Part shown: positions 25,587-39,425 of the stretch, in pieces
How positions within the stretch are numbered: position 1 is the stretch's first letter
Layout: each line of letters begins with the position of its first letter
Assembly (NCBI GenBank): GCA_016839365.1
Contig: JAEOUH010000004.1
Span: 1 to 42,908 of the forward strand
DNA length: 42,908 nucleotides
Origin: Candidatus Hermodarchaeota archaeon
GTDB lineage: Archaea > Asgardarchaeota > Hermodarchaeia > Hermodarchaeales > Hermodarchaeaceae
Reading direction: 5' to 3'
Notes under the pieces: generated by a model
What the model was told of the DNA's origin: nothing
Database searches by the model: none
Seen by the model: the letters and a program-made list of their open reading frames with translations, nothing else
Program-made: the position numbers and the translations under genes

Positions 25587-28172
25587 CTATTCTTCTGATC
25601 GGGCTTGGTTGAGGATGGGATAGATCTGTTCTGCGTTGATTATCGCTTCTCCATCGACTTCATAGTCGGTGGGATGGACAAAGATGGCATGGGTTTGGTT
25701 GCCTCCGACGCCACCATGGTTGCCGATTAATTCTTCATAAGCGGCAACGGAACCGTCAGGATAAACTGGGCTTATAAGTGTGAGATCACCAGCACTTGGG
25801 AACTCGGCCAGTCGCAAGAGTTGTTTGATGCGGATTTCAGGTCGCTCATAAGGAATCAGAGGGTTTATTCCATCTATATTACCGGTTCGTAGTTCAACAG
25901 CCCCTTTTTCTGATAAGAGGATTGGACCACGATTTTGATCCAAGACAATAAGGAAGCCAACTCCTTCATGGGCGACGAGTTTCGAAATAAAGCCAGGAAA
26001 TTGTTTTTCAAAGTCTTGTAAGGTTAGGCGTTCTTTTTGTGTATTGAAATAGACTTGTGCCAGATTACCTGATGCACATACTATGACATCATTTTCACTG
26101 ACCTCTTCACGCATATCAACTCGTTCTTTCTCAGCTTTTTGTCGATAGAAATGGCGTAGTGCAGTTTCGCCCTTCTTACCCTCCACTTCCGCTTTTCCAG
26201 CGTTTAGGTCATCGACGAGTCCACCGACATATCCGACGTGGGCATCTAAGGCTTCAATTTCTCCAACAGATAATTGACCTTCTAGCAAATTTTCAATGAA
26301 GTCTTTAATGGAGATGTTATATCGTTGTTTAAAGGTCCACCCCACAGACTGACCATGGTCTGAGAGGACAAAGAGATGATAGGGGCGAGGAGCTAGATGC
26401 TCGATAGCATGGAGCACTCGCCGAATCTGTTTATCAAGACCCCTAAGAGCCTTCAAAGCATCGCTGGTCATAGGCCCCGAATGATGAGCTATCTCATCGT
26501 ACCCAAGATAAGTAACATATACTCCGGGTACACCCCGGATGATGTCCTGTATCACCATGGAAGTCGCAATGTCACGCATGAAGATGTTCGTCGCTGCCCG
26601 AACCCCAGGATAGAATTTGTGAAACCGATTCATTCGTGGCTTCCGTCGAGTAATAGTTTGTTTGATTATCTGCCCAATTTCTACAATAAGATCCCAGATT
26701 GTATAGATAATACTCCGGTTCATCGCCCAAGGATTGAGTAAATAATAGTAGAGATCTTTACTTCGTCGTTCGCTGGCTTCCGTGTCTTTTTCTTGAAGCG
26801 TTGACATTGTGAAAAAGGAATAGGTGGCATCACCGCTTACTAGGTTACTCACACTGGACCCTCCGTTGCGGAGAATCCCCTGCCCATCGGATGCGCGTTT
26901 ATCGATGAAATGTGCATCTGTCTGTTTGTTTGAGGTCAACATGCGGTCTTCGTTTTTAATGTACCAGCGAAACGCAGGAATATCGTAGTTGTTCCCGTGG
27001 AGAATGCCAGCTTGACAGGAGGAGGTCATTGAGGGGATTCCGCAGTCCCATCCAGTGAGCTCATGGCTGCCACGGTCCAATAACTTCTGAATAGTGGGCA
27101 TATTTTCACGTTTTAGTGCCGCTTGCAGAGCGGGATAGCTTAGCCCATCGATTTCCAAGGCAACGACGCCAGGAGTTTGAGGGATATCTTCGGTTGCTAT
27201 TTCTTTCTGGATTTGTTTAGCAACGTATTGATTAAAGAAGCTACTATCATCATCGAGCCCTACAAGATTAACAATAATCGCATTGAATGCAGCAAAAATA
27301 AGCCCACCAATGAGGGCAGCCGGGATATTAACGACTACAAACCCAGGCAAAAAGACAGAGAGAAGATAAAGTATGAGTCCATTAACAAGGAACATAACCA
27401 CAAAGGAGACGGCAAATCCGATCCACCAGCGGGCAATCCATGAGGCGACTTTGGTGAAGACTGGGCGAATTAGCACGTTGACAAGAGCAATCAAGGCTAC
27501 GACAATATAGATTACCCCTAAAGCTGTGAGAATGTCACCAGAAAACACGCCAGCAACGATAATTCCATTGTACAATATCGTTGTTAAAAGCAGAGCAAGT
27601 GCATTGAGATTCCAGACCAAGATGAAGCGCCCTAGTCGGATATTACCATAGGGTTGATCTTCTAGCTGCCAGATAATAAATGCACCAACAAAGAACACGT
27701 TAATTGCCAACACAATAAAGAACACACCTAATGCCACATCAAGAAAAATAAGAGGGCCGATGACGGTCACAGGATGAAAGAGGTTGAACACATAACTGAG
27801 AACTCCACCAGTTATTGCTAGAAGAGACACAGCGATACCAAGAGGAACAGCCCATTTCTTCCGATACGCTGTCCCCAGGGCTACGATCATGCCAATAAGT
27901 GCAACAAAGGTAAGAGAAACGCCTATTGTAAGAAAAAGGCTGAGAATCAACTGAACGGTGAGACCAGCATTCGTAATTGCTGTCATAATTTGAGCATATT
28001 GGGTAGGATTAGAAACAGCAAGGAGGTTGAGATAATCTACGAAACTGGCGGGGAGTAAACTGATGATCCCACCAATTATCGTGAAAGTAAACATCAGTAC
28101 AAAGTCAATGCCAGCAATGACGCGAACTACTCGAGGGGCTAGGTGCTTTCTTACGGTCTGAGTTTCTGCCAT
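25587..28172 (-). CDS. Multi-TM protein with 4-TM 'phage holin family'-like region fused to an alkaline-phosphatase-superfamily (phosphodiesterase) domain
   Basis: LVNVLIRPV and FLVNG holin-family motifs; EIDGL, PSMTS, YDEIAHH, LSDHGQ and HGG metal ligands. Confidence 0.8.
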   Translation of the reverse strand: MAETQTVRKHLAPRVVRVIAGIDFVLMFTFTIIGGIISLLPASFVDYLNLLAVSNPTQYAQIMTAITNAGLTVQLILSLFLTIGVSLTFVALIGMIVALGTAYRKKWAVPLGIAVSLLAITGGVLSYVFNLFHPVTVIGPLIFLDVALGVFFIVLAINVFFVGAFIIWQLEDQPYGNIRLGRFILVWNLNALALLLTTILYNGIIVAGVFSGDILTALGVIYIVVALIALVNVLIRPVFTKVASWIARWWIGFAVSFVVMFLVNGLILYLLSVFLPGFVVVNIPAALIGGLIFAAFNAIIVNLVGLDDDSSFFNQYVAKQIQKEIATEDIPQTPGVVALEIDGLSYPALQAALKRENMPTIQKLLDRGSHELTGWDCGIPSMTSSCQAGILHGNNYDIPAFRWYIKNEDRMLTSNKQTDAHFIDKRASDGQGILRNGGSSVSNLVSGDATYSFFTMSTLQEKDTEASERRSKDLYYYLLNPWAMNRSIIYTIWDLIVEIGQIIKQTITRRKPRMNRFHKFYPGVRAATNIFMRDIATSMVIQDIIRGVPGVYVTYLGYDEIAHHSGPMTSDALKALRGLDKQIRRVLHAIEHLAPRPYHLFVLSDHGQSVGWTFKQRYNISIKDFIENLLEGQLSVGEIEALDAHVGYVGGLVDDLNAGKAEVEGKKGETALRHFYRQKAEKERVDMREEVSENDVIVCASGNLAQVYFNTQKERLTLQDFEKQFPGFISKLVAHEGVGFLIVLDQNRGPILLSEKGAVELRTGNIDGINPLIPYERPEIRIKQLLRLAEFPSAGDLTLISPVYPDGSVAAYEELIGNHGGVGGNQTHAIFVHPTDYEVDGEAIINAEQIYPILNQARSEE

Positions 28173-30183: not shown

Positions 30184-30783
30184 CTAGTCTGTCTTATCTG
30201 AAAAAAGGATTCGGAAGACACATTGTGGATCACCTTGTAGGCGTCCTGCGGTTTGCGTAACTCGAGCCACATAGGGGATTTCGAGATTATCAATCCAATG
30301 TTGTAACAGTCCTTCCAGCAAACCTGAAACTAGCTCACAGTACCGTAAATCCATCTCCGCTTCGAAGGTGTCTTGTGAGCAAATGGGACACAAGTCTGTG
30401 CGAAGAAGCAGTGTTCTATCGTCTGTGAATTCTAATGAAGTGGGTGGTTTTCCGGTTGCCAGTGTCCAATTACGTTCTAGATATTCGTCGACCCGGTTTA
30501 GAAATAAATCTGGCGAATTAGGGAAGAAGTCTTCTTGTGGTTTACCATAGCGACTGACGAGCCCTAGGAGGAGTGGGGTTGTCATAGTCTTTCCAAGGGA
30601 ATGAAGGGCAGCCTCAATAGCGGTGGGATTTCCGGCATGTTCAACGGATAAGGCTTCAACTAGACGCAAATAGAAAATAGGCATTAGTGGACCGGAGAAG
30701 AGGGATGGTTTTGGTTCGGGAGTAGGTTCGTTCGGTGTCATGCTGTTTTCCTCCGGATAGTTGGATTGAGTTCCTCCGTTCAA
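30184..30783 (-). CDS. V4R / TRAPP-Bet3-like ligand-binding-fold protein
   Basis: LHSLGK helix, CPIC, YCELVSGLLEGLL, GDPQCVFRI. Confidence 0.7.
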   Translation of the reverse strand: MNGGTQSNYPEENSMTPNEPTPEPKPSLFSGPLMPIFYLRLVEALSVEHAGNPTAIEAALHSLGKTMTTPLLLGLVSRYGKPQEDFFPNSPDLFLNRVDEYLERNWTLATGKPPTSLEFTDDRTLLLRTDLCPICSQDTFEAEMDLRYCELVSGLLEGLLQHWIDNLEIPYVARVTQTAGRLQGDPQCVFRILFSDKTD

Positions 30784-32024
30784 TCGTCGTCATCAGATTC
30801 TGTTTCAGCGGATTCTGCTTTAGCTGGTTTGCCCGTAATTGCAGCCTTCACCTTCTCTCTGCGAGAAGCCTTTGCAGGAACTCGTTCACGAAGCTGCTGT
30901 TCGGCTTCGGCCAGGGGACCCATGGGAATAGTTGCAGGTAATGTGGGTGCTTGTCCGGTTAATTGAGCGATTTCAACTGATTTTTCAGCCCAGAGCACTT
31001 GCGCTGGATGAACTCCAGCTACGCGCCAATAGAAGAAACGATCCCACAACTTTTCTTCGATAGATAATACGCCAGCGGAAAGCGAAACGAGATTTAAGCC
31101 AAGCCGGTTAAATGCTTTAGCTACAATCTTGCGTACTTCGTCACGGATTTCTGCTTCATCCCGTAATGCACTCATAAAATCGTGCTCTGAGAACTTATCG
31201 CGCATCACGTTATCAATTAGCGTTTTAAGATACTCGACGAGTTCTTGTGAGTTCATTGGAATTCGTTGTTCGTGAAGCGTGGAAATCAGTTCCCGAGCAT
31301 CTTCAACATCAAAGGCGAAGAGCAACCCATAGGGTTCTTGGAGTCGGATTGACCGATTGTACACTGTCTTAGCTTCTTTCCCCTCCCCAGTTGTCACTGG
31401 AACATCAAATTCTTCACGCCGCCAAGATTTTCCAGTCCAAGTGAGTCGCGCTAAATCGGAAGTCTGAGTTACGCCAGTATTGGCATATACATGAACCCTA
31501 CCAGTGTAGATGTATACAATATTGGCTTTGAACCCTTGACCCCGCCATCCTGTCTTAATTAAGGGTGAAGGAAAGGTTTCAATGGAATAGGGAGTCTCAC
31601 TGGGTTCCCAAACTTCGTAGACTTTGAACTCTCGATTGCCATTGTGGAATTCCTCGCCATATGCACAACAAAGCCAGTCTGGAGGAACGTAGACCTTTGC
31701 GTCTTTTTCGAGGATTTCGATTTGTTCCATGTCCCGTTCCAAATCCGGTGGATGGTAGATAAACTGGGGGAGGCGTGCATCGGATTCTTGGATTTCGGTT
31801 CCTGTGGCGAGTTTTCGGACAATGGTTTTTCCTGTTGTGAACCCACCAAAGGCTGCAAGCCTGGTTAGCCGGCGTATTGCCCGGATTGCTTGGGCACCCC
31901 GATCCTTATGAGGGGCTTGGATCATTTGCGTCCAATAATTTTGACTACCTACATCTCCAATTGGGATACTGGGATGAGGACCCAGTTGTGGGTCTGGTGC
32001 CATTAAACAGATTGTTTTTGCCAC
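30780..32024 (-). CDS. SPFH/Band-7 protein of the YdjI ('virion core'-like) subfamily, no TM anchor
   Basis: FIYHPP...EILEKDAKVYV, P.I.TGW..FKANIVYI, YGLLFAFDVEDARELISTL, FNRLGLNLVSL. Confidence 0.65.
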   Translation of the reverse strand: MAKTICLMAPDPQLGPHPSIPIGDVGSQNYWTQMIQAPHKDRGAQAIRAIRRLTRLAAFGGFTTGKTIVRKLATGTEIQESDARLPQFIYHPPDLERDMEQIEILEKDAKVYVPPDWLCCAYGEEFHNGNREFKVYEVWEPSETPYSIETFPSPLIKTGWRGQGFKANIVYIYTGRVHVYANTGVTQTSDLARLTWTGKSWRREEFDVPVTTGEGKEAKTVYNRSIRLQEPYGLLFAFDVEDARELISTLHEQRIPMNSQELVEYLKTLIDNVMRDKFSEHDFMSALRDEAEIRDEVRKIVAKAFNRLGLNLVSLSAGVLSIEEKLWDRFFYWRVAGVHPAQVLWAEKSVEIAQLTGQAPTLPATIPMGPLAEAEQQLRERVPAKASRREKVKAAITGKPAKAESAETESDDDD

Positions 32025-32086
32025 GATGAAAGCCTCCGTCTCATATCTGCGAATACTTCTAGCTTCAAATAACTATTGGTGGATGG

Positions 32087-32959
32087 TTAAAACCCGGTTA
32101 TCTCATACCGGTCACCAAGTCGTTGTGCCTTTGCTTCTTCTTTGCTCCTCCATTCTTCAATGAATTGCTGCGTCTTCTGTTGGATTGCTGAATTGGCTGA
32201 TTGGGCAATCCAATCCATAGAGATATGGACATGATCCTCTCGAAGGGCGATGGTACGGGCTACAGCATCATAATAGCCTCCCTGCCCTTTCTTTCCGAGG
32301 TATGATATAAACGTGGTAAATAATTTCTGTGCCTTGTTGTTATAGCTTTGAAGCATACTTTCTGGAACAATGGGGATTTGTTTGATGATGCGTTTTCCGA
32401 TGAGATCATAGATGGCCGTTTCTGTTGTTTTTTCGTGTTTGACCCCGCTTTCAAGCAGTGTATAGAAGTCTATGGGTCCTGTGAAGCAACTCTTAAAGAA
32501 CTCATGGCTCGTGCGTTGGAAATCAAGGAGTTCGCCTGTTGCTTTGATGTAGACGACCTCTTGTACGCCATCGGAACGTTCCACCGCCAAGTTGATGTGT
32601 TTTTTCCATTTGGTGTACCCCTGGGGATTTTCCTGCAGTTCAGGAAGAAATACGAGGGGTACATTGAAGAAGACCTTGCTGTGTTTGAGGGCTTTTTCTA
32701 ACTCTCCCTTGTATGGTTCAGTGGGTGGTAGACCTTCGACTTCTGCTACAAATGCGGCGCGATAGCTTGTTAAAATGAAATGGCCGTCCTGCCCCTTCAC
32801 CATGAGGGGGTCGGTGCCAGCCCGGACGCCCTTGGCGATTTTGACTTTGGCCACCAAGAGCAAGGTTTCGTCAGCCTTGGGGAGGATGCTCTTGGCGATG
32901 GTCAGTTTTTCTGTTGGTTCGAGTTCCCAAGTCAATGCGGTTAACCTTCCTGCTTTCAA
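32087..32959 (-). CDS. Hypothetical protein with a possible PH/GRAM-like N-terminal domain
   Basis: DETLL...GHFILTSYRAAFV...FNVPL matches the G-x-L-x-L-T-x-x-R-x-x-F pattern of PH-like folds. Confidence 0.5.
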   Translation of the reverse strand: MKAGRLTALTWELEPTEKLTIAKSILPKADETLLLVAKVKIAKGVRAGTDPLMVKGQDGHFILTSYRAAFVAEVEGLPPTEPYKGELEKALKHSKVFFNVPLVFLPELQENPQGYTKWKKHINLAVERSDGVQEVVYIKATGELLDFQRTSHEFFKSCFTGPIDFYTLLESGVKHEKTTETAIYDLIGKRIIKQIPIVPESMLQSYNNKAQKLFTTFISYLGKKGQGGYYDAVARTIALREDHVHISMDWIAQSANSAIQQKTQQFIEEWRSKEEAKAQRLGDRYEITGF

Positions 32960-32985
32960 TCTATTGTAGGATTTGGATTATTTGA

Positions 32986-35136
32986 TTATTGTCCAAGAAA
33001 ACGGTTGGCGAATTCAGCAAACTGTGCCATGGTTTCCTTGGTGATGCTGGGTTTTGTAGCTGCGATGGCTTCTTTGAAGTGTGACATACTTACACTGGAC
33101 GCTTCCAGGTTCTTGCGTAGAACTGCTAGAACTGCCTTTCGACACACATTCTGGATATCTGCACCAGAATAACCTTCCGTTACTGAGGCAAGTTGATCGA
33201 GTCTTACATCATCGGCAAGAGGCATGTTGCGAGTGTGGACGGCGAAAATAGCTTGTCGAGCCATCTGATTGGGAGGAGGAGTAAAGATGAAGATGTCGAA
33301 TCGACCGGGTCGTAGCAGGGCAGTATCAATCATATCCGGACGGTTAGTGGCGGCTAACACTACCACGCTTTCAAGTTCTTCCATGCCATCCATTTCAACC
33401 AAGAGTTGGTTTACAATGCGTTCGCTAACACGGCTATCGTATCCCGATCCTCGGCGTGGAGCAATATTGTCGAGTTCATCGATAAAGAGAACCGAGGGAG
33501 CGGCTTGGCGGGCACGTCGGAAGATTTCGGCGATGATTTTTTCGGATTCACCAACCCATTTACTCATCACTTCAGCGCCACGAATACTGATGAAATTCGC
33601 CTGACTTTCCGTAGCAACAGCTTTTGCAATAAGTGTTTTCCCGGTGCCAGGGGGACCAAAGAGAAGAATCCCTTTGGGTGGTGTGATGTTGAACCGGGAA
33701 AAAATATCAGGTCGACTGATTGGTAATTCGACGGCTTCGTGAAGAGCCTGTCTAGCTTGTTCCATTCCACCGATATCATCCCAACAAACCATAGGGATTT
33801 CAACGGCAATTTCCCGTAAGGCGGATGGTTCGACCACTTGTCGGGCAGTTTTGAAATCAGTTGCATTGACCACAATTTGGTTGATCATGTCAGGGGGAAC
33901 TTGCATGTGCTGATCTTGGATTTTCGGCAACACACGGCGTAAAGCACTTAGAGCAGCCTCCTTGACCAGGAAGGCTAGGTCAGAGCCCACAAACCCATGG
34001 GTTCCCTGTGCGAGTTGGTGTAAATCAACGGAGTCATCCAAGGGAACACCCCTTGTATGGACGCGAAGAATGTCATATCGACCATTTGCGTCAGGTACGG
34101 AGATATAGATTTCACGGTCAAACCGTCCTGGGCGTCGAAGGGCGGGGTCAACGGCATCCAACCGGTTAGTTGCCGCGAGGACATAGACCTGGTCTCGGTC
34201 TTGGAGCCCGTCCATGAGGGTCAAAAGTTGGGCAACTATGCGACTTTCCATACCTCCTGATTCGCGTTTAGCAGCAATGGCATCGATTTCATCAATGAAG
34301 ATGATGGCCGGTTTGTTTTTCTCGGCTTCTTGAAAGGCATCTCGAAGGAACTTTTCTGATTCGCCATAGTATTGGCTGACAATTTCAGGACCGTTTATAG
34401 CACGGAAGAAGGCTTCGCTTTCTGTCGCAACCGTTTTTGCCAAAAGAGTTTTTCCACATCCCGGAGGTCCATGCAGAAGCACACCATGTGGTGGTTGAAT
34501 TTTAAGACGGGCAAAGAGTTCCGGATGGCGAATAGGCAGCTCGACGATTTCACGGATTCGTGCTATTACATCGTCTAACCCGCCAACATCATCATATGTA
34601 GCTGTAGCTATCGCGGGAGTTTCTTCAGGGGCAGTTTTTTGAAGTTGAATATCAGTATTGGCTTGGACTATCACGTTTCCAGCAGGAACTGTTTTCGCCA
34701 CATAGAACTTCGCTTCGCCCAGGGCAAACGCTGCACGACCCACTGCAATGATGATATCCTTCTTAATGGGTTTGTTTAACAAATTTGATCTCAGCAAAGA
34801 CGTAGCAAGTTCTTGTCGGTATTCAATTTCTTCGCCTTTGAGCGGTGTTAATACAATACTACGAGCCGGTTGCGCCTCTATGCCATGAAGTGTAACGATA
34901 TCTCCGATGCGAACACCAGCATTCAATCGAGTCAATCCGTCCATTTTAATAACGTTCTGACCATGAAGAGCAGAATCACGTACAGCTAGCGCCGAGACAC
35001 TCTTCTTCCCGACAATTTCAAGCAATGCTCCATCTGCTAGTTGCAGTTGGTCTAATACTGCTGGATCAACTCGAACTGTGAATCGTCCAACATCCACAGC
35101 ACTTGCTTCAGTCACGCGTACCGATGCTGCACTCAT
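32986..35136 (-). CDS. CDC48/VCP (VAT) family double-ring AAA+ ATPase
   Basis: N-domain ([11 protein letters not shown]), D1 [24 protein letters not shown]2 [23 protein letters not shown]. Confidence 0.95.
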
Positions 35137-35224: not shown

Positions 35225-36115
35225 ATGGGTCGAATGACTATGACGTCCCCAAAGCCACCTACTATTCATTTTAACACGGGCCATAATGAAGAGCTTGCTA
35301 TCGATGAACCGGAATTAACCCAGTTGGTGCGTCTACTCGAATTAAATGGTATGCAACCTACAAAGTTGACTACAGCCCTAACACACGAATCCCTTGCAGA
35401 ATGTAAGGTTGTGGTGCTTGGCAATCCTAGGGATTCTCTATTTACTTCAGATGAAGTTTCGGCTCTCGTTTCCTTTGTAGAATCTGGTGGAGGGCTCCTC
35501 ATTGTAAGCGGTGCAACCATTTTTGGGAGAGGAGGGGATATGGCGCGAAAGACAAATCTCAATGAAATCGCAAAGCATTTCCAATTTGAGTTTGCAACCA
35601 AAGCCCTCGCACAGCCAGTAGATGTTTCTGATGAGGTGATTAAGGCCGTTCCCACACACGATCATCCTATACTAGTTGGCATTGGGCCGCTACTTCTGGC
35701 ATCAGGAGTCAGCCTACTGGCAGAAGATACGGAAACACATCTTTTTCGGGCTGCAAATATACCAGGTACACAAACGGTTGCCATTATCACCGAGAAGAAG
35801 GAAGGACGCATAATCGCTTTTGGTGGTGGAACCTTCTTCTTTAACGATTATATTCAGTTAAGTGATCATGAACATCTTCTTGTACAGATTTTTCGATGGC
35901 TTTCAGGTGTCCCCTTGAACCTCCCAGTCCAAAGGCTTTCACCCCAAGGACCCATCTTAGATGAAGCATCTGCTACAGAAGCAATCGCTGTCTTAAGACA
36001 GCAACTGGACAAAATAGAGACAGAACTTTCGAACCTTAAAGAGGTAATTAATACTAGCGTCAAGGAAATGGAAAAACTCGTACGTCTATGTCAAGACGAA
36101 GAAAAAGAGACCTAG
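35225..36115 (+). CDS. IFT52/GIFT-like (DUF4350/GATase-like) domain with a C-terminal coiled coil
   Basis: VVVLGNP..LFTSDEVSALVSFVESGGGLLI, NLNEIA, GRIIAFG..FFFNDY, IFRWL; heptad LRQQLDKIETELSNLKEVI. Confidence 0.65.
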   Translation: MGRMTMTSPKPPTIHFNTGHNEELAIDEPELTQLVRLLELNGMQPTKLTTALTHESLAECKVVVLGNPRDSLFTSDEVSALVSFVESGGGLLIVSGATIFGRGGDMARKTNLNEIAKHFQFEFATKALAQPVDVSDEVIKAVPTHDHPILVGIGPLLLASGVSLLAEDTETHLFRAANIPGTQTVAIITEKKEGRIIAFGGGTFFFNDYIQLSDHEHLLVQIFRWLSGVPLNLPVQRLSPQGPILDEASATEAIAVLRQQLDKIETELSNLKEVINTSVKEMEKLVRLCQDEEKET

Positions 36116-36774
36116 TCCTTTGGGGAAACTAGCACTTCAATTCGTAACCGTCGTTCTAACTGGACGGCTTGAAGGTGCTGTAGCCTGAAGTACTCTAGCA
36201 TCACCTGAAACACGGGTTGTCGAAGTTCTTTGGCAAGTTCTTGAATTGATCGGTTTCCATCAATCACATCGAGGAGTGCATGCAGTTCCTCGGGTGTTTG
36301 ACTCTTGGGAACAGTGTGAACACGGACTGGAACATATCGTTCTGCAACAGCATACGGTCGAAACAGTAAATCGATTTGTGGTGCAATTTCACGAAAGTGA
36401 CTTAGATCACCCAGCCAGTTCTCTAATAGCTCGCCATGTTGGCGCTCCATGATGTTAATCAGGGTACGCATACGGTCACGGATGGCAGGCAGGTCATCAG
36501 TGGAGAAGACTGCAACATAGATGTTTTTTCCATATTCTAAGAGGATTTTGACATCTTCACGGTCAATAATACGGAGGCGCCCATCTTCACGTTCAAGAGT
36601 CCGTAATTTTTTTCCATCCTCGGAAATACGACCAATTAAGTCAGAAAGAAACATACTCACCGCAGAGAGGAATCCAGTGACTAAATCAGGCTCCATGTTT
36701 TCGATCTGGAAGTCCTTTTGGAGTAATGTTCGTCCATCTCGATAGACAACATAGAGACTATACAGTTGGGCCAT
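36112..36774 (-). CDS. Longin-like domain plus C-terminal winged helix
   Basis: LYVVYRDGRTLL, DLVTGFLSAVSMF, KILLEYGKNIYVAVF; C-terminal LLDVIDGNRSIQELAKEL. Confidence 0.7.
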   Translation of the reverse strand: MAQLYSLYVVYRDGRTLLQKDFQIENMEPDLVTGFLSAVSMFLSDLIGRISEDGKKLRTLEREDGRLRIIDREDVKILLEYGKNIYVAVFSTDDLPAIRDRMRTLINIMERQHGELLENWLGDLSHFREIAPQIDLLFRPYAVAERYVPVRVHTVPKSQTPEELHALLDVIDGNRSIQELAKELRQPVFQVMLEYFRLQHLQAVQLERRLRIEVLVSPKD

Positions 36775-36836: not shown

Positions 36837-39425
36837 TCATCGAATCCGTTGTGCAATCCGATGGATTTCGCTTATAATTTCCGTTGGTGATGTGAGTTCA
36901 GCACCTAGATAGGTGCGCCCGTGCGTGATATAAGCCATGTAGAAACCTAAGAACGGTATTATCTTGTCTTCTTTTATTCCCACTTCAATGAGATTCGGCG
37001 TATTTAGTTCTTGGGCGCGTTTATGTGCCCAATCAAGAATAACCTCGTGATGCTTTTTCTGTCTTATTGGAAAGAACTCATGGTGAAGGTTGATAGTCAC
37101 AAGAGGGATTCGGTTGTTATTCATCAGGTGACACTGATGAAGCACGTCAGCAATCGCTTCAGGTAACCCAATATCAGGTGTATCGGAGTTAGTCAATTGA
37201 ATATTGGGCAGGAAATCACTAAACACAACAACAATGGGTAAGACATTGGAGTTTCGACGGCGTTCACGTTTAATGGTTTCATGGGCTCGTTTCACTCCTG
37301 CAGCTAAGGGGGTATATCCAGAGAGGCGAAGTGACATTAGCTTGGCGACCAACCGGGTCCAATTCGTAGTAGGTGCTTGTACTTCCACAGCGCCCCAATC
37401 TTTGAGGGCAATGAGTCCAACCCGATCTCGGGTACCTTCTAAACAATTCTTGAATGCAATCAAAGAGAGCTGAAGTTTATCAAAACTGCGAAGCATGGAT
37501 ACACTCAGGTCCACCACAAAGATGATGGTAAGTGGAGTCCAGCTCTGAAACCGTTTTTCCCGAACATCTGGAGGTCGAATACGAACTCTGGGTTTTTCCC
37601 GAAGAGAAAGATCTGTATGAAGAGCAGCGGCTTTAATGGTGGCAGGAATGTGAATATTTCGAGGAGAGCCTCGAGGAAGTCCGGAGCCAAGGAGCACTCC
37701 ACCTTCAGTTTCTCGGGATTGCAGAGACCCAGCCCGTCGTCCAACCTGGCGAATTGACCATTTGGGTGCCCGTTGTCGACCAAAATATCGAGGCTCAAGA
37801 AAATCTTCCAAGTCAAAGAGCGGTTTCCCTTCATCCATTCGAATGAAAGAGGAGGTAACCGATGGTGAACTTGGACTAGAGGGTTGAGAGGAAGATTTCG
37901 CTAACTTTTGTGGTGTGGAACTAACGGCAGCAGGACCTGTTGAATCACCCTCATGTTTCGCTCGACGATACTTTCCTGTAGTGTCAGGAGGTTGGCTGCC
38001 TTGGGCCAGTGCAGGCATCACTGATCCAGGGCGTTTATGATAGCGGTAAATACGTTCCAGTGCCATGACGAATCCGACTGCAATTACTCCGCCGATAACG
38101 AAATTAATGGGCCATGGAAGTGGTATAAGGAGGCCGATGGCAGCCGCGATAACCATATAGAAACATACGAACCCAGTATATGAGCAGCGTCCCCCAGGAC
38201 CACGCCTGGGTGGGGTTCCAAAAAAACGCTCACCGTCGTGACTACTGTCCAAAGGATGGTGTTGCTTGAACTTGCTGGTAAGTTTTTGATATTCATCCTT
38301 CGTGTAAGGCGCTTTGTCTTTAGCTTGGGGATTTTGCGTCTTCGTCTTTTTTCGCGCTTCCTTCATTGCATCTTGAATGTCATTTCGGTTAGGAGGTTCG
38401 AGAATACCACGCTGCCGAGTGCGATGACTGAGCGCAAGGGGCGCTACAATTTCCACATCTTCGGCTGTGATGGATGTCCGTCCATCAAACGCAGCAAAGG
38501 CCATCGCAGTCTTGGCAATCACAATATCTGGGCGAGCCCCATCAACTTGTAGTCGAGTGGTCAACTGGGCAATGACCTGCATAACTTCATCTGAAATCTC
38601 CACGGTCTTCATCTTTTCTCGAGCGGCAATGATTTCAGCTTGGAGTTTTCCTTCTTGTTCAGCCCATTTTTTATGAAGTTCTTGGGGATTCCTTTCAAAT
38701 TCAATATTTAATCGGATGATTTCAACGCGTTCTTCAGGAGAAAAGGGGCGTTGGATTGCAACGTGAAGGGGGAATCGGTCCAGTAATTGAGGACGTAGTT
38801 CTCCTTCTTCTGGGTTCATTGATCCAACAAAGATGAATCGAGCAGGATGGCTGACTGAGATGCCTTCTCGTTCAACAACATTGACACCAGTTGCTGCTGC
38901 ATCAAGAAGTGCGTCCACGATGTGGTCAGGGAGAAGATTGACCTCGTCTACATAAAGGATATTTTGGTTTGCATCAGCAAGAATTCCAGGTTTTAGAGCC
39001 GCTTCTCCTTCACGGATAGCCCGTTCTACATCTAAACTTCCGACTACACGGTCTTCAGTGGCACTTAGCGGGAGATTTACCACACGCATTTTTTGCATTT
39101 GAGTGTTCAGTTTTTTATTCTTCGCAAGTTTTGCCATACAAGTGCCACATAGTCCAGTGGGGTCATTAGGATCACAACGAAACTGGCAGTCGGTTACGAC
39201 AGGAATATCAGGCAACAGCGCAGCAAGAGAGCGAACAACGGTAGTTTTTCCTGTACCTTTTGGACCTGTAATGAGAAGGCCTCCAATGTTAGGGTTGATA
39301 GCATTGAGTAGAAGAGCGAGTTTTAGTTCGTCATGATTAACGAATGCCGTGAAGGGCAGAACGCTACGTGTAGTGTTGCTCGCTTCTGGTACCAACCCAA
39401 GAACCTCTACCTCTCCTGCCCTCAT
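36837..39425 (-). CDS. Chelatase ChlD/BchD-like AAA+ - vWA protein with a transmembrane hairpin in the linker
   Basis: [51 protein letters not shown]; vWA DLSVS, G.TPLA; hydrophobic insert of about 40 aa. Confidence 0.88.

Follow-up and report, generated by a model that had tools for sequence, protein, structure and literature searches.

Six neighbouring genes in a 42,908-nucleotide (nt) stretch of a Candidatus Hermodarchaeota genome (contig JAEOUH010000004.1, here C5; the whole stretch is called the window) form a conserved unit that is ancestral in the sampled Hermodarchaeia, a lineage of Asgard archaea, and that was lost in one piece in a sister genus. Four of the genes, encoding a Cdc48 paralogue, a PH-like protein, an SPFH protein and a V4R protein, make up an operon, and the other two encode an IFT52-GIFT-like and a longin-like protein. 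An earlier reading made from the sequence only had singled out the four-gene operon and had overlooked the two further members. The data suggest a real, lineage-restricted and undescribed module, for which a function is proposed below; no description of the gene combination was found in the literature searched, which left out most subscription papers. The host genome (G000) is 2.2 Mb in size and 84% complete, and its congeners include Ca. Hermodarchaeum yapensis.

All four operon genes are present in 14 of 14 congeners, in the same order wherever the contigs allow it to be followed. The entire six-gene order is kept, at the same site, in two deeper-branching lineages represented by metagenome loci, one from Guaymas Basin contigs (L070/L177 and L328; ERZ940666) and one from Logan/JGI (L327, L068 and L072; SRR17234074). 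Conservation of order in related genomes, the absence of which would have spoken against the sequence-only reading, is therefore established, and no internal loss or insertion within the block was seen in the loci examined. The AOR protein encoded next to the block is 66-70% identical between the deeper lineages and the window, and at this distance the short gaps of the four genes are still kept. Among the 400 Asgard genomes searched the block is confined to Hermodarchaeia, and among GTDB genomes to one genus; orthologues of its genes occur only where the whole block occurs. This confinement makes the block a side branch and not the direct ancestor of a eukaryotic system.

The sister genus shows what the site looks like when the block is gone. 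In three of its genomes AOR is joined directly to the ChlI-vWA gene, 44-61 nt apart, a count that leaves out G015, in which AOR was not found and ChlI-vWA lies at a contig end. The genus has two Cdc48s only, and orthologues of the PH-like, block SPFH, V4R, GIFT-like and longin-like proteins are absent; it retains a generic YdjI paralogue, and its longin-like paralogues are distant (29-33%). The direction of change was read from a concatenated tree of two gene markers, AOR and ChlI-vWA, rooted on three other Asgard genomes and used because the ChlI-vWA tree alone was poorly rooted, with long outgroup branches. The block-bearing Guaymas pair falls outside the genus and its sister genus together (support 100/99), and a clade of all block-bearers, as expected from a single later gain, is rejected by the approximately unbiased test (p-AU 0.003; 0.02 with AOR alone). 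It follows that the common ancestor of the sampled Hermodarchaeia already had the block and that a single deletion later removed it en bloc.

The four co-directional minus-strand open reading frames (ORFs) at 35136-30184 were confirmed (Table 1). Of the spacings first proposed for them, the 62-nt gap stands; the 26-nt gap and the 4-nt overlap arose because the most upstream TTG had been taken as the start. After correction the genes are separated by 50, 62 and 38 nt, and no two of the four overlap. For the PH-like gene the start is TTG 32935, where several orthologues have ATG, with the Shine-Dalgarno (SD)-like motif GGAAGG before it and, in five congeners, an in-frame stop just upstream; this start sets the 50-nt gap to the Cdc48 gene. 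The V4R gene starts at ATG 30741, which sets the 38-nt gap to the SPFH gene; GGAGG lies 8 nt upstream, 10 full-length congener ORFs encode 182-185 amino acids (aa), and the entry in the protein collection likewise has 185 aa. SD-like motifs precede three of the four genes. The ratio of nonsynonymous to synonymous substitution rates (dN/dS), measured against the closest congener, is 0.046-0.115, and this strong purifying selection argues that the four genes are real and constrained. The GC content of the block (45-48%) is similar to that of its flanks. Scans for sigma-70 promoters and terminators, with models unsuited to archaea, returned results at or below chance.

Table 1. Genes of the block and two of its neighbours, in window coordinates
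Feature	Position	Strand	Length	Domains and basis
Third Cdc48 paralogue	32986..35136	-	716 aa	N domain, D1 and D2; TIGR01243 above cut-off, motifs, tree
Orphan PH-like protein	32087..32935	-	282 aa	Probable PH/GRAM-like N-terminal domain, small alpha/beta C-terminal domain, near-invariant C-terminal RYEITGF; ESM Atlas feature match, profile, complex model
Derived soluble YdjI/SamI-type SPFH protein	30780..32024	-	414 aa	Band_7, hhalign, alignment, tree
V4R/TRAPPC3-like protein	30184..30741	-	185 aa	Profile matches to PDB 7yh3/7yh2
IFT52-GIFT-like protein	35225..36115	+		PF23355, PDB 5fmr; divergent from cdc48
Longin-like protein	36112..36774	-	220 aa	Likeness to other longin-like domains of the genome
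Phosphodiesterase fusion (neighbour)	25587-28172	-		Multiple transmembrane segments, holin-like domain with four transmembrane segments, phosphodiesterase
ChlI-vWA protein (neighbour)	36837-39425	-		ChlI/ChlD-like AAA+ fused to vWA; hydrophobic hairpin-like stretch at about residues 415-460 between the domains

The block Cdc48 has a CDC48_N domain and two AAA domains and scores 894 bits on TIGR01243 (cut-off 803). The Walker A/B, sensor-1 and arginine-finger motifs are intact in both rings and the aromatic pore loops are present. The protein ends in FLGQ, its tail stopping after the last D2 helix, and the HbYX motif is absent. The tails of its clade (LGQ, LRK, VGG or EGS) do not match the proteasome-docking C-terminal motif [LVIMGAPFYW][FY]x in any of the 30 members retrieved. 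The genome encodes three Cdc48s in all; the tails of the two outside the block, PYT and PFT, conform to the HbYX pattern given by Forouzan et al. 2012 (PMC3493965), and PAN is encoded as well. In a quick tree the block Cdc48 forms its own clade, with a stem of 0.62 and an SH-like approximate likelihood ratio test (SH-aLRT) value of 100, and its N domain is at least 68% identical within the clade and about 40% outside it. The first description of a dedicated Cdc48 paralogue, with both rings intact, an FLGQ end and no HbYX, was thus accurate on motifs and tails, and the phylogeny sets it apart from the HbYX-bearing copies. In the D1 ring, pore loop 1 reads SQYYG in place of SK(F/Y)YG, and pore loop 2 is shorter by two residues in most clade members, changes that may alter the grip on substrate. 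The two housekeeping Cdc48s lie at G000 C31:10884-13136 and C27:20318-22510; in both tails a proline takes the hydrophobic position, a feature kept throughout the family, and the C31 copy adjoins a TBP-like gene.

The block SPFH protein is a derived member of the YdjI type, as its initial label had it. A Band_7 match is found in 14 of 14 aligned members and a weak Band_7_1 match in 13 of 14; the window protein scores 28 bits on Band_7 (cut-off 23.6). Comparison by hhalign with the generic Asgard YdjI-type paralogue, which itself scores 87 bits on Band_7_1 and aligns with it lengthwise, gives 92% (E 6e-7). The block protein has gained an N-terminal extension of about 75 aa and two insertions, and has lost the C-terminal zinc ribbons, with a charged tail instead. 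It has no transmembrane helix (maximum hydropathy 1.24), so that the N-terminal membrane helix of the erlin type is missing. Identity within its clade is 73-96%. Descent from the local paralogue was considered: a clade shared with it is rejected (p-AU 0.011) and the protein nests with Thorarchaeota homologues, a placement made unreliable by its stem of 3.6 substitutions. The generic YdjI-type protein, with a double zinc ribbon, lies at G000 C37:50913-51962; it occurs in both genera and is widespread in Asgard genomes, and neither PspA nor Cdc48 was recognised among its neighbours on C37.

The PH-like family is an orphan, forming one 50% cluster among the 1.84 billion representatives searched with HMMER; a match to P0058 in that search was due to chance. 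The protein has no Pfam match, and a search of the other 385 Asgard genomes brought up nothing of note. Its ESM Atlas features match BBS5/Vps36/GRAM clusters at 0.90, with a low recognition score below the mark, and a G-x-F-x-L-T-x-x-R motif stands in register with Asgard PH domains, in a profile comparison that is not significant (probability 1.8%; 2 of 100 shuffles as high). The PH-like label is thus plausible from the feature match and the motif register, while statistical confirmation from profiles was not obtained; we judge the PH fold rather likely. AlphaFold2 models from 15 and 28 sequences have mean pLDDT (predicted local distance difference test) values of 38 and 42, with about 30-45 over the putative PH domain and only residues 200-270 moderately confident. 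With these models as queries, Foldseek searches of PDB, VIA wide and the Atlas returned no clear match; at the top of the Atlas results stood clusters of Lsm12/Gemin6 AD domains (TM-score 0.36-0.51 by target), a lead only, the AD-like part being a C-terminal alpha-beta-beta-beta-alpha unit (window 32120-32340, minus strand). ESM Atlas features of the C-terminal half gave no usable match, and likeness to SUI1/eIF1 did not reach significance: it covers 26 columns at a probability of 1.6% and scores 19.2 against 18.2 for the best shuffle, with a target picked after the motif was seen. The C-terminus itself (window 32087-32120, minus strand) is a near-invariant RLGDRYEITGF/W across lineages that are 56-60% identical overall. 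It is not an HbYX motif, and conservation of this kind is typical of what a docking peptide would show.

A possible binding partner of the PH-like protein comes from one ESMFold2 job, in which it was offered to the Cdc48 N domain and residues 1-365 of the SPFH protein. The complex scored 0.49, against 0.00 for the best of three controls, with a partner pLDDT of at least 71 and agreement between runs in at least 31% of contacts. Swapping out SPFH brought the score down to 0.00, with a partner pLDDT of 52; the signal in the model therefore needs the SPFH chain. A control retaining Cdc48-N with the PH-like protein also scored 0.00, which counts neither for nor against binding between those two. 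In calibration, 58 of 80 solved complexes reached the mark, as did 2 of 110 mismatched pairs, and the range up to 0.60 holds seven of those solved complexes and both mismatches, so the score is a hint. Binding of the PH-like protein to the SPFH protein is thus weakly supported by the model.

The V4R label also holds. The family profile matches the Thorarchaeota TRAPPC3 structures over residues 16-178 (PDB 7yh3, E 1.1e-5; 7yh2, E 7.6e-5), a near-full-length match with a profile that does not separate TRAPPC3-like from general V4R proteins. Residues C118, C121, C135 and C174 are invariant and align with the cysteines of Thorarchaeota TRAPPC3, which binds zinc via four cysteines and has a hydrophobic cavity for which ligand binding has been proposed (PMC10933270). 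The GIFT-like protein matches PF23355 (E 1e-11) and IFT52 (PDB 5fmr, E 1e-4) and has a probable C-terminal coiled coil. The longin-like protein, which has no Pfam match, is tentatively so labelled from its motif and shares similarity with further longin-like domains encoded in the genome. It also resembles the N-terminal portion of a protein that is V4R-like towards its C-terminus. This protein, encoded at L104:1399-2289 (G027) in another Asgard family, joins a longin-like and a V4R-like part in one chain, a fusion that would fit a functional connection of the two folds.

The four operon genes probably work together in some way. On a reading that we hold at slightly under an even chance, they would form a protein-remodelling module that is specific to the Hermodarchaeia lineage, was passed on vertically and arose from additional, neofunctionalised copies of genes that are general among Asgard archaea. 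The gene content, ancestry and block-wise loss, the intact ATPase motifs and the missing tail and anchors are shown by the data; an oligomer, the recruitment of Cdc48, a substrate and a location are inferred, as follows. The soluble YdjI-type SPFH protein would oligomerise into a scaffold, to which the PH-like protein may bind, as the model weakly suggests. Powered by ATP, the dedicated Cdc48 hexamer would dismantle or remodel the scaffold or its clients and release them instead of passing them to the 20S proteasome. The TRAPPC3/V4R-like protein, of the zinc type and probably acting with the longin-like and GIFT-like proteins, could supply a ligand-sensing or targeting input. The long stems of Cdc48 and SPFH, each followed by strong conservation, speak for this remodelling module, and partnerships between SPFH and AAA+ proteins are established for HflK/C-FtsH and prohibitin-m-AAA (PMC12624060).

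Several observations weigh on the other side. One 6.6-kb deletion takes out all six genes, so that their joint loss is a single event, and the unrelated flanks (AOR, HIT, ChlI-vWA and a macro domain) are about as syntenic as the block, so that gene order alone is no proof of shared function. The GIFT-like gene lies on the opposite strand, and the longin-like gene might be transcribed together with the ChlI-vWA gene upstream. Nothing in the analysis links Cdc48 physically to any partner, and the profile comparison for the PH fold falls short of significance. None of the four operon proteins has a transmembrane helix, the maximum 19-residue hydropathy being 1.0-1.4; membrane action and the analogy to erlins in endoplasmic reticulum (ER)-associated degradation (ERAD) are therefore unsupported. 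Membrane remodelling, which the sequence-only reading had proposed, also lacks a YdjG/H-like anchor in the block and a PspA (PF04012) above the family cut-off in the five incomplete genomes searched. The erlin analogy drawn there is topologically poor, erlins being ER-lumenal and membrane-anchored, on the opposite side from p97 (PMC12624060). Any action at the cytoplasmic face of the membrane, which we regard as possible and somewhat doubtful, would be peripheral. It is unlikely, on present data, that the block encodes a dedicated Cdc48 segregase that is independent of the proteasome, has its own non-UBX cofactor and, together with TRAPPC3-, longin- and IFT52-like subunits, builds up and takes down a peripheral SPFH coat; if true, this would be a prokaryotic parallel of p97-plus-adaptor membrane trafficking.

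The absence of transmembrane segments would suit a signalling or regulatory module that works independently of membranes, with V4R binding a small hydrophobic ligand and Cdc48 switching a soluble SPFH/PH-like complex. PoxR-type V4R domains bind phenols. The cavities of V4R and TRAPPC3 proteins bind hydrophobic ligands, as proposed also for Thor-TRAPPC3 (PMC10933270), and B. subtilis SamI/YdjI is cytosolic with a regulatory role (PMC13713150). However, the block contains no DNA-binding or kinase output gene, and most characterised SPFH assemblies abut the membrane (PMC12624060), and we think such a module improbable. Much the same weight falls on the view that there is no single machine at all, but lineage-specific genes in a slowly rearranging region that were removed by one deletion, with at most the PH-like/SPFH pair interacting. 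The equal synteny of unrelated flanks in all lineages, the single loss and the use of two strands agree with it, yet it leaves aside the short gaps and the SD-like motifs kept across lineages with such divergent AORs, the lack of single-gene loss in the loci examined and the restriction of block-gene orthologues to genomes with the whole block.

A proto-ERAD system, which the sequence-only reading had implied and in which membrane proteins marked by an erlin-like SPFH cage are pulled out by Cdc48 for degradation by the proteasome, would use the same two fold families as erlin/p97, and both the intact ATPase motifs and the PAN and two HbYX-type Cdc48s available for the degradation step would fit; the lumenal, anchored position of erlins (PMC12624060) makes it distinctly unlikely. 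Least credible, and largely refuted, is a recently acquired, genus-specific island, mobile or defence-related. Its presence in a single GTDB genus and the grouping of its SPFH protein with Thorarchaeota homologues, not with the local paralogue (on a long, unreliable branch), would be expected of such an island, but the block sits at the same site in two deeper-branching lineages and a single later gain is rejected. Its GC content is like that of the flanks, no integrase was seen, its five non-ATPase proteins have no PADLOC match, and no relative of its SPFH protein was found in viral contigs.

The block proteins are either orphans or new members of known superfamilies; among described gene contexts, YdjGHI and the SPFH-containing Meth_adaptin ESCRT loci come closest. 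The B. subtilis PspA-YdjGHI/SamGHI system (PMC8581546, PMC13713150) likewise encodes a soluble Band_7_1-type SPFH protein in an operon with partners. There YdjI reaches the membrane only via YdjG/H (PMC8581546), whereas the block lacks PspA, the YdjG/H membrane anchors and the zinc ribbons and has Cdc48, PH-like and V4R genes instead. Meth_adaptin ESCRT loci also have an SPFH gene beside an AAA ATPase, and Halo_adaptin ESCRT loci an ATPase with a VAT-N-domain (Makarova et al. 2024, 10.1101/2024.02.06.579148), but these ATPases are single-ring and Vps4-like, in contrast to the two-ring Cdc48 of the block, where ESCRT-III is absent. An SPFH scaffold with an AAA+ motor is shared with erlin1/2-p97 ERAD, HflK/C-FtsH and prohibitin-m-AAA (PMC12624060). 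The SPFH proteins of those systems are membrane-anchored, and erlins lie on the far membrane side from p97, whereas both block proteins would be cytosolic, with no protease or ligase linked to them. The block Cdc48 shares with archaeal Cdc48/VAT proteasomal ATPases (PMC3493965) the N-D1-D2 layout, all catalytic motifs and a TIGR01243 score above cut-off, and differs in its missing HbYX, altered D1 pore loops and own operon with partners. HbYX-less Cdc48 paralogues are not unusual: M. mazei CDC48-C, which the block protein resembles in this, does not activate the proteasome (PMC3493965). Thorarchaeota TRAPPC3 (7yh2/7yh3; PMC10933270) and eukaryotic TRAPP are approached by the full-length profile match, the four aligned cysteines and the longin-like gene in the same block; a small GTPase gene, on whose product a TRAPP-like GEF complex with a longin dimer would act, is absent from the block. 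By analogy, the block may function like a pair of SPFH and AAA+ proteins; it does not fall within ERAD, PspA-YdjGHI or the proteasome-docking Cdc48s.

With an HbYX-less Cdc48 and small, apparently soluble partners, the block would allow an in vitro test of a p97-style segregase with specific adaptors in Asgard archaea. To our knowledge, work on archaeal Cdc48 has dealt mainly with its role as a gatekeeper of the proteasome, and few dedicated cofactors or substrates are known. The block also gives an Asgard TRAPPC3-like protein genomic partners, none of which could be inferred from gene layout in the structural study (PMC10933270).

Makarova et al. 2024 state, in ambiguous wording, that Hermodarchaeia have 'none' of the diverse ESCRT families (10.1101/2024.02.06.579148). 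The Snf7 genes of the genome are outside the block, on C7, where a 503-aa cysteine-rich PH-domain protein converges on two Snf7/ESCRT-III genes (G000 C7:24513-27333; L294, L338). This ESCRT-like locus is conserved in both genera, and a Vps4-like ATPase is encoded on C71.

The neighbours of the block vary. The phosphodiesterase fusion is intact in the sister genus and in some congeners; about half of the congeners have it in truncated form or lack it. Two separate matches suggest that the ChlI-vWA gene is split in G023 and G033. In one Guaymas lineage an ABC transporter, an ATPase with an FtsX-type permease, lies just outside the V4R gene, between it and AOR on the opposite strand (L070:8708-11834).

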